In this document: one piece after another, positions 1 to 7,778 of the stretch
Numbering within the stretch: position 1 is the first letter of the stretch
Layout of the letters: every line of letters starts with the position of its first letter
Origin: a virus
Lineage: Duplodnaviria; Heunggongvirae; Uroviricota; Caudoviricetes
Strand: one strand, 5' to 3'
DNA: 16,207 bases
Virus record (IMG/VR): IMGVR_UViG_643348545_000010
Notes under the pieces: model-generated
What the model was told of the DNA's origin: nothing
Seen by the model: only the letters and a program-made list of their open reading frames with translations
Databases searched by the model: none
Position numbers and translations under genes: made by a program

Positions 1-165
1 ATGGCAAAGCCGATCATCACGCTCAATGGCCTAAAAATCGTCATTATGTTGGGAATGCTGGTCATTATTCTCTGCGGTATCCGTTTTGCCGCCGAGATCA
101 TCGTGCCGTTTATTCTCGCATTATTTATTGCTGTTATATATAACTTATTTCACATAACACGTTGA
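1..165 (+). pseudogene. tqsA: 5' fragment of tqsA (AI-2 exporter TqsA/YdgG), interrupted by the island
   Basis: ATG at 1; translation [45 protein letters not shown] matches my memory of the E. coli TqsA N-terminus. After about codon 45 (nt ~136) the sequence turns AT-rich, reads IYNLFHITR and stops at TGA 163-165. The native protein is about 344 aa. Confidence 0.5.
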
Positions 166-211: not shown

Positions 212-233
212 TGACTACACCAGTGACTACACC
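212..233 (+). repeat. Tandem direct repeat TGACTACACC-AG-TGACTACACC near the left junction; possible integrase arm-type site
   Basis: Two exact 10-mers with 12-bp phasing, about 70-90 bp inside the point where the tqsA frame diverges. Confidence 0.4.
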
Positions 234-249
234 GTTCGGTGCACTGTAT

Positions 250-276
250 GAAACAACGTGGAACAAATAGACACAA
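250..276 (-). promoter_or_regulatory. Phased TTGTTC-type hexamer repeats (minus-strand orientation), left-end copy
   Basis: Plus strand reads GAAACAA-cgtg-GAACAA-atag-ACACAA. A 15-bp core AACAACGTGGAACAA is identical to the site at 7753-7778. Confidence 0.4.
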
Positions 277-7538: not shown

Positions 7539-7575
7539 AAAAAAAGTCCTGGGGTTAAGTAAGGAACTCCAGGAC
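7539..7575 (-). terminator. Intrinsic-terminator-like hairpin plus U7 immediately 5' of the capsid start codon
   Basis: Minus strand: GTCCTGG-(16-nt loop)-CCAGGAC-UUUUUUU-AUG. The 7-bp stem is perfect, 7 U follow, and there are 0 nt between the U-run and the ATG. No SD. Confidence 0.5.
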
Positions 7576-7627
7576 GCGGCAAACACTCAACCGTTTTTCA
7601 TAAGGAAATCAGCAATCGCACCGTTCG

Positions 7628-7675
7628 TTTTCCCGCCTGGTAATGAATATTGGCGAGCACATTAACAGGCGGGAA
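7628..7675. promoter_or_regulatory. 17-bp inverted repeat (16/17 match) with 14-bp spacer in the packaging-operon leader
   Basis: TTTCCCGCCTGTTAATG ... CATTACCAGGCGGGAAA on the minus strand, about 100 bp upstream of the capsid start. Confidence 0.45.
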
Positions 7676-7752
7676 AGTGGCCCCAGCGTCCTGGCACCAC
7701 GGGCGAGAATAATCATGATTCAGTTCGGGTAAAATATGCCGATCCGCTCAGT

Positions 7753-7778
7753 GAACAACGTGGAACAACCACGAACAA
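7753..7778 (-). promoter_or_regulatory. Three phased hexamers (GAACAA on plus = TTGTTC on minus) with 10-bp periodicity upstream of the packaging operon
   Basis: GAACAA-cgtg-GAACAA-ccac-GAACAA; same motif family as 250-276 and 14898-14943. Confidence 0.45.

Follow-up and report, generated by a model that had tools for sequence, protein, structure and literature searches.

Ten-base-pair-phased TTGTTC arrays at the att arms, alpA region, and packaging operon of a capsid-forming PICI: candidate operators of the AlpA protein

Phage lambda Xis occupies X1, X1.5, and X2 as three head-to-tail protomers about 10 bp apart, beside an Int arm site, and bends the P arm. The 186 Apl protein is grouped with P2 Cox as a multifunctional binder of phased repeats. 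The structure of the Xis-DNA complex is available as PDB 1RH6 (cited in PMC11773190). P2 Cox forms a winged-helix filament on phased cox-boxes at attP, Pc, and P4 PLL, and where the boxes lie and which way they point decides whether it acts as an excision factor, a repressor, or an activator (PMC3936717). TorI binds the words GTTCG, GATCG, and GTCCG: three sites in attL, spaced by about 10 bp, form one block, and there is a second block; these sites adjoin the arm-type sites of Int, and TorI also represses intS (PMC2951348). The winged-helix RDF of ICEMlSym R7A, RdfS, forms oligomers on DNA and has attP as well as the promoter of its own gene as targets (PMC11963761).

In Gram-negative PICIs, AlpA is the master activator. 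The alpA gene is needed for induction of capsid-forming PICIs (PMC6092414; bioRxiv 10.1101/2022.09.08.507074). The AlpA protein of EcCICFT073 activates PalpA on a plasmid without Int and is therefore an autoactivator, its overexpression leads to Int-dependent excision and replication with no helper, and Pint is unaffected by it (PMC6092414). In PICMI, AlpA alone triggers excision and has been proposed to be the excisionase (PMC10803314). A search of the literature detected no defined AlpA operator in PICIs and no report linking AlpA to att arms or to a packaging promoter, and the papers searched gave no account of what directs excision or turns on the capsid/packaging operon of the satellite. 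The kind of mechanism considered below is ordinary, and the AlpA sites on these islands had apparently not been mapped.

The DNA analysed here (the window, a stretch of 16,207 nucleotides) is a capsid-forming PICI of the EcCIEDL933 / O-island 51 / CP-933C type from E. coli, inserted in tqsA (bioRxiv 10.1101/2022.09.08.507074; PMC3378721). Positions 1-137 are the 5' end of tqsA, a gene that is uninterrupted in most E. coli genomes, and the island genes all lie on the minus strand. Genes were named by comparison with an annotated O55:H7 island of 95% identity and from Pfam scans, and the features discussed below are collected in Table 1. The int start annotated in homologs lies 12 nt past the window edge. 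In transcription order, int and alpA are followed by an Icd-like region, DUF4222, a D5/DUF5906 primase (11184-9436), SSB, PerC, a small ORF, and then a terminator. The packaging operon comprises, in order, the major capsid gene (7538-6381), protease, portal, connectors, HNH, TerS, TerL, and a 93-aa ORF.

Two components of the early operon were noted in more detail. Two tandem Icd-like ORFs (12087-12593 and 12544-12840) adjoin a C4 antisense RNA (12309-12396, minus strand, 69 bits) and an a1/b1 target element of C4 antisense RNA (12464-12513, minus strand), both detected with Rfam. The C4 RNA and the Icd-like ORFs form a P1/P4-type antisense-RNA immunity module within the PICI early operon, and this module could be the Gram-negative PICI repressor, the existence of which is left doubtful in PMC6092414. 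The DUF4222 protein (11181-11480, minus strand) is the RgdR homolog of O-island 51 and has C-G-D, not R-G-D, at residues 20 to 22. This is the ED1a-like RgdR variant, which reportedly does not activate type III secretion (PMC3378721).

Table 1. Positions of arrays, genes, and candidate control elements in the window
Feature	Position	Strand	Description
att core TGCTGTTAT	129..137		Identity to uninterrupted tqsA stops at 137; left tqsA/island junction
Doublet TGACTACACC x2	212..233	+	12-bp period; candidate Int arm-type sites, left arm
Left-arm array	251..276	-	3 units (TTGTGT, TTGTTC, TTGTTT on minus strand), 10-bp period; PWM 32.1
Terminator-like hairpin with U7	7539..7575	-	Abuts capsid ATG (7538); covers AGGA ribosome-binding site
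Putative activator-dependent packaging promoter	7706..7733	-	-35 TTTACC (7733-7728), N16, -10 TATTCT (7711-7706)
Packaging-operon array	7753..7778	-	3 exact TTGTTC units on gene strand; PWM 34.8
Intrinsic terminator of upstream (early) operon	7802..7819	-	Hairpin kept in related islands
alpA	14427..14615	-	62 aa; Pfam Phage_AlpA PF05930, E = 5e-18; proposed trans factor
Putative alpA promoter	14677..14705	-	TTGCCA-N17-CACAAT with TG
Conserved hairpin, bidirectional terminator-like	14775..14803		Between distal array and alpA; flanked by A-run and T-run
Distal alpA-upstream array	14898..14943	+	5 phased units, orientation opposite to other sites; PWM 30-33
int	14990..16207	-	P4-type tyrosine recombinase; Arm-DNA-bind_3 and Phage_integrase domains

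An earlier note on this DNA had described TTGTTC repeats with 10-bp phasing at three sites, and analysis of the window detected all three as described, with the left-end site at 251-276. On the plus strand, the left-arm array reads AAACAA, GAACAA, and ACACAA (starts at 251, 261, and 271), and the packaging array, correctly labelled in the note as lying upstream of the packaging operon, consists of three exact GAACAA units (starts at 7753, 7763, and 7773). The array said to lie between int and alpA in opposite orientation was found there with five phased units (TTGTTC, TTGTTC, TTGTTG, TTGTTG, and TTGTAT on the plus strand, with starts at 14898, 14908, 14918, 14928, and 14938), and an out-of-phase CTGTTC is located just past it at 14944-14949. 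The period was exactly 10 bp at all three arrays, and sites contained three to six units. The 15-mer AACAACGTGGAACAA held to be common to the left-end and 7753 sites was an exact match, with only two copies in the window (252-266 and 7754-7768) against an expectation of 0. The pattern also proved stronger than described there. The number of sites, given as three, was revised to four: a further array (L001 17869-17894) is located beyond the window on the right, where the start of int faces the 3' part of tqsA. The left-end site has this array as its counterpart on the other att arm. In the O55:H7 homolog, this fourth array reads CTACAA-AAACAA-GAACAA and is contained in the 180 bp separating int from the 3' part of tqsA.

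A search of the window for TTGTTC-N4-TTGTTC with up to 2 mismatches yielded 10 matches versus 1.74 expected, a number reached in 0 of 200 shuffles. The single hexamer TTGTTC was not enriched in the window (16 versus 10.4 expected), which indicated that the phased arrangement is the signal. A consensus was derived from 34 aligned units of four islands, and arrays were scored with a three-unit position weight matrix (PWM). The unit consensus, W-S-G-A-A-C-A-A, is longer than the hexamer, with nearly invariant last four bases and a G/C-rich spacer. Scores of the three-unit PWM were 30 to 35 at the three window sites versus a maximum of 21.9 in 200 shuffles. Array-like matches below threshold were observed at 8068-8103 (minus strand, PWM 16.6) and, as two-unit matches, at 13404-13419 and 13535-13550 (both minus strand); these three are probably due to chance.

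In order to compare positions between islands, we used 81 loci (955 kb) that had been chosen by AlpA homology, independently of the motif. High-scoring arrays in these loci fell into only four positional classes: the two att arms (int side and int distal), directly after the int stop, and upstream of an HK97-type capsid gene. A script left 17 arrays unassigned; these are located at contig edges and belong to the four classes, and no array outside the four classes was detected in the 955 kb of AlpA-selected loci. Enrichment and positional conservation in related islands, on which the earlier note had staked the idea of a common binding site, both held clearly (four classes, 81 loci). The array directly after the int stop was present in 59 of 59 islands with a type-A AlpA (at least 85% identical) versus 0 of 12 islands with other AlpA types. 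An array 150 to 195 bp upstream of the HK97-type capsid gene, always in one orientation, was found in all 28 AlpA-selected loci with such a gene and in 47/47 when loci from a pattern scan were added; TTGTTC was always on the sense strand, and the capsid proteins were 62 to 100% identical. An array located upstream of int, no more than 220 bp from its start, was observed in 23 of 24 loci with an Int at least 60% identical and in neither of two AlpA-selected loci with an Int of ∼40% identity (0/3 when locus L023 was included). The int-distal arm array follows the 93-aa ORF.

The arm module was detected on both arms at four integration sites, tqsA, clpS/cspD, phoQ/roxA, and smrA/abgR. EcCICFT073, at phoQ/roxA, encodes a type-A AlpA (94% identical over 62 aa, counted from the translation) and contains a 6- to 7-unit array 25 bp after the int stop as well as both arm arrays; it thus has every array class expected for a non-capsid-forming island. 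Alignments of the capsid-upstream and alpA-upstream arrays demonstrated invariant ACAA cores with drifting spacers and flanks. Arrays were present in islands with the DUF5906 primase, another primase, or a RepA helicase, and none was located beside the replicase gene. Arm arrays persisted whichever packaging module was present. Islands with other capsid modules lacked the packaging array. The motif was unchanged across AlpA types that are only 53 to 67% identical. In L023, which has an Int of 40% identity and two AlpA paralogs, the capsid array was kept and the only visible arm lacked an array. A search of genome contigs for AlpA gave 3 loci, and the two distant ones were without GAACAA arrays; no arrays were found in the small amount of flanking host or prophage DNA that was sampled.

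Several array-bearing or AlpA-bearing loci were of a different character. Locus L063 has a three-unit array (1455-1480) directly downstream of alpA, in the orientation of the packaging array, and encodes a type-B-like AlpA. In L023 (6640-7215) and L195, two AlpA paralogs directly follow the 40%-identical Int, and relatives of this type, which are inserted beside a terminase-like gene, may be helper-embedded PICIs. Three unrelated metagenomic phage contigs contain four to five GGAACAA units with a 10-bp period (L012 4328-4373, L027 2949-2984, and L072 10132-10177). The units of L072 are inside a long ORF, the product of which was replisome-organizer-like as judged by eye. The L072 units are therefore probably origin iterons, and unrelated phages have apparently come to use this word on their own.

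Analysis of the att arms detected a second repeat. The att core 9-mer TGCTGTTAT recurs at the right junction in L001, and the doublet of TGACTACACC occurs in the window as two exact copies with no further exact copy. On the right arm of the O55:H7 homolog, GTGACTACACC-A-GTGACTACACC precedes the array, and both arms therefore have the doublet followed by the array in equal order and orientation, forming a module of ∼65 bp in which the two elements are 17 bp apart. The doublet was found on both arms of every related island and only at the arms. Its sequence changed with the class of Int, being (A/T)(G/T)T(G/A)ACTACAC for Ints 75 to 100% identical, AACTGACCACA for an Int of 67% identity, and TGCAATACACA for Ints of 40 to 41% identity. 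A Geobacter element with an Int of only 22% identity has a doublet of AGGTTGCATGA, also with a 12-bp period and likewise beside int, such that the words across Int classes are ACTACAC, TGACCACA, TGCAATACACA, and, in Geobacter, AGGTTGCATGA. The array word, unlike the doublet, was constant across Int classes that are 66 to 100% identical. Variation with Int class and confinement to the arms led us to assign the doublet provisionally to Int and the arrays to another factor. The stepwise change of the doublet with Int class favours it over the array as the candidate Int arm-type site, and the Int arm-binding domain would then have four doublet sites in attP, one per protomer of the tetramer.

The surroundings of the packaging array were examined for signals of transcription. 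On the 3' side of the early-operon terminator, a conserved TTTTGTAAATTAT is followed by the three TTGTTC units, and this array is the most conserved block of its region across two capsid classes. A sigma-70 consensus scan detected no promoter near the packaging array, with TTTACC-N16-TATTCT below its threshold. This weaker match, read by eye, may nevertheless be the packaging promoter; it begins nineteen bases past the array and aligns with TTTACA-N16-TATGTT in the divergent capsid class. Relative to this candidate, the array units are centred at about -56, -66, and -76 (span of -54 to -79). If the promoter is right, the array would be at a class-I activator distance, where activators that touch the upstream side of RNA polymerase are commonly located. 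The packaging leader (7539-7700, 160 nt) is strongly structured (z = -4.1), and its hairpin was not conserved in the other capsid class. The hairpin is terminator- or attenuator-like and is a possible second level of control.

The arrangement upstream of alpA was less direct. The best promoter candidate has a TTGCCA that is invariant in 5 divergent islands, and the distal array is located ∼230 to 270 bp upstream of it with the 14775-14803 hairpin in between. Base substitutions in L004, CFT073, and L193 leave the stem of this hairpin intact. No promoter was identified downstream of the distal array. The distance, the intervening hairpin, and the inverted orientation make a part of the distal array in autoactivation less certain. 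A weak proximal ACACAA-like run with a 10-bp period (∼14640-14684, minus strand) overlaps the putative alpA -10 element and transcript start, with the candidate -10 falling in the first unit of the run; this run scored below the PWM threshold in the window and was borderline (16.2) in L193 (1527-1552). A perfect 16-bp palindrome, CAGTATGCGCATACTG, was also observed between the int stop and the distal array (14957-14972). It is kept in several type-A islands, not in L004 or CFT073, and was rejected as a LexA box as it reads CAGT...ACTG and not CTGT...ACAG.

Recurrence, helical phasing, and strict positional conservation in related islands argue for one sequence-specific DNA-binding factor, as the earlier note had suggested. 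That note had listed AlpA, Int, and a helper-encoded factor as the candidates. AlpA emerged as the best of these; Int lost ground because it is the doublet that tracks Int class; and a helper was set aside for excision because AlpA alone suffices in EcCICFT073 (PMC6092414), although a helper-encoded factor may act at the packaging promoter. We therefore prefer the reading in which the arrays serve as an operator for AlpA, the 62-aa winged-helix protein of excisionase (RDF) type encoded by the island, and assign this reading a probability of about 55%. A single-sequence AF2 model of AlpA was confident (pLDDT of 87), and its best match in the PDB was the GIsul2 excisionase 8C3T (39% identity, TM of 0.79 to 0.86), on which no literature was found; the next matches of the predicted fold were RdfS, Pukovnik Xis, and TorI.

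The mechanism that we envisage for AlpA has three to six protomers arranged head to tail, one per helical turn, each of which would contact a (S)GAACAA core. At the att arms, an AlpA filament 17 bp from the candidate Int doublet would bend the DNA, enabling Int to assemble the excisive complex. In capsid-forming islands, AlpA bound at -54 to -79 of a weak promoter, past the early-operon terminator, would turn on the capsid/packaging operon. In islands with a type-A AlpA, the array of five to seven units after int would contribute to positive autoregulation of alpA.

Several lines of evidence point to AlpA as the reader of the arrays. The arrays are enriched and phased, occur on both arms at four att sites, and are limited to four positional classes, and the distal array tracks the AlpA type. 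EcCICFT073, the source of the AlpA data, has matching arrays, and the closest solved structure is an excisionase. The doublet and not the array varies with Int class, and the arrays occur regardless of replicase type or PerC. The TorI, P2 Cox, and RdfS architectures are precedents, and the packaging array is at a class-I distance from a promoter-like element that is conserved in two capsid classes. The traits of an RDF operator are also present, namely, about one head-to-tail repeat per turn, candidate Int arm-type sites alongside, and a small RDF-type gene near int. Other observations count against this reading. It is unusual for an RDF to have sites on both arms, the distal array is missing with other AlpA types, and the visible arm of L023 has no array. 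The array upstream of EcCICFT073 int, when set beside a Pint that is unresponsive to AlpA, also appears to speak against AlpA. The constancy of the motif with AlpA types that are 53 to 67% identical gives no tie by covariation and reflects either shared specificity or another binder.

The integrase itself could be that other binder. The arrays would then be arm-type sites of its N-terminal (Arm-DNA-bind_3) domain, similar to lambda P'1-P'2-P'3, and it would be through the internal copies that Int regulates alpA and the packaging operon or tethers them. Three or four adjacent array sites are found on each att arm, as arm-type sites would be, and all closely related Ints are accompanied by an unchanged motif. 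The before-int counts (no array at ∼40% Int identity) are as consistent with Int as with AlpA. However, a separate 12-bp doublet changes with Int class while the array does not, and it is unlikely that one arm-binding domain reads two unrelated words. The arrays are not confined to att, with those at 7753-7778 and 14898-14943 being far from the att core, and the capsid-upstream array is present in L023 despite its divergent Int. Furthermore, activation of PalpA by AlpA occurs in the absence of Int (PMC6092414). We consider Int a rather improbable reader of the arrays.

A trans factor other than AlpA or Int, such as a host OmpR-family response regulator, a helper-phage protein, or another conserved island protein (e.g., DUF4222/RgdR), is unlikely to be the reader. 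OmpR-family regulators bind 10-bp direct repeats, and the tor box of TorR, CTGTTCATAT, shares TGTTC and the 10-bp period with the arrays (PMC9239176), although the spacer of the arrays is G/C-rich and not ATAT as in the tor box. The motif is invariant across AlpA types and moves with the packaging module into islands of different AlpA and Int; set against a host or prophage origin is the lack of arrays in the little flanking DNA sampled. A helper factor does turn on alpA transcription, yet AlpA alone is enough for excision and replication without a helper (both PMC6092414). DUF4222 was present in all islands examined, but DNA binding by RgdR is non-specific (PMC3378721), and DUF4222 identity drops to ∼30% with the motif unchanged. 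A further and quite doubtful proposal is that the arrays, rather than being a simple AlpA operator, act as a common docking code by which recombination is physically linked to gene expression. In one version, AlpA or an Int-AlpA filament could bridge the att arms with the arrays at alpA and the packaging promoter, and late capsid expression would then be licensed only in an excising or excised island. In another version, a host or helper winged-helix regulator could read the arrays, and this would be the long-sought helper signal of Gram-negative PICI induction.

Replication-origin iterons or packaging (cos/pac, TerS) recognition repeats are very improbable. Phased direct repeats are typical of iterons and of cosB, and the gut phage contigs described above have GGAACAA arrays with the same period, one of them in the gene judged by eye to be replisome-organizer-like. 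Against this, identical arrays accompany three unrelated replicase types and are located away from replication genes, and independence from replicase type led us to rule out replicase iterons. TerS/cos repeats were ruled out because arm and alpA arrays are also found in islands that lack this TerS/TerL/HNH module; where the capsid module differs, the packaging array is missing. Other candidates were rejected individually. PerC was rejected because L002, L004, and L005 have the arrays but no PerC. A lambda CII site (TTGC-N6-TTGC) does not match, as nearly all units have T at their fourth base; in the window, this pattern occurs only at 14921-14934, an incidental match that is absent in L004 and CFT073. 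The Pseudomonas aeruginosa AlpA, a Q-like antiterminator with the site GGGACG between -35 and -10, shares the name but is a different protein, and the analogy was dropped because it contacts DNA through residues at positions 128-142, in the helix-turn-helix at the C terminus of its Q-like fold, and the protein encoded here is only 62 residues long.

These findings are useful to the PICI field and unsurprising to specialists in site-specific recombination. Gram-negative and capsid-forming PICIs depend on AlpA, and the arrays are an easily mutated candidate cis-element for the switch to excision and to capsid/packaging expression. Together with a separate candidate Int arm site, they make a dual role of AlpA as excision factor and late activator testable. 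They likewise make it testable why islands can exchange packaging modules, given that the candidate operator moves with the module. The arrays also bear on how control of alpA differs between type-A islands and others, and the motif could be used as a marker in annotating where islands of this family end.

Comparison with the systems described at the outset suggested both a shared architecture and distinct features. TorI, an RDF of the KplE1 / HK620 family, is a small winged-helix excisionase, as the model of AlpA appears to be, with no detectable sequence similarity between the two proteins. TorI has sites on one arm and is repressing, whereas the arrays here occupy both arms and two internal regions and are predicted to be activating. 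RdfS has no consensus motif and uses indirect readout, in contrast to the very sharply defined core word of the arrays. The sites of lambda Xis are likewise confined to one arm, and Xis is not known to activate transcription. P2 Cox belongs to another protein family and recognises a 9-bp box, TTAAAG/CNCA, with at least six boxes per site; in the P2 system, moreover, it is the helper's own protein that activates the satellite, unlike AlpA here. The AlpA of EcCICFT073 and EcCIEDL933, the master activator of Gram-negative PICIs, is of the same protein type and is encoded in the same island architecture as that of the window. Overall, to judge from the sequence comparisons, the arrays look like members of the TorI, Cox, RdfS, and Xis class, in which multifunctional winged-helix RDFs act on phased repeats at att sites and promoters.
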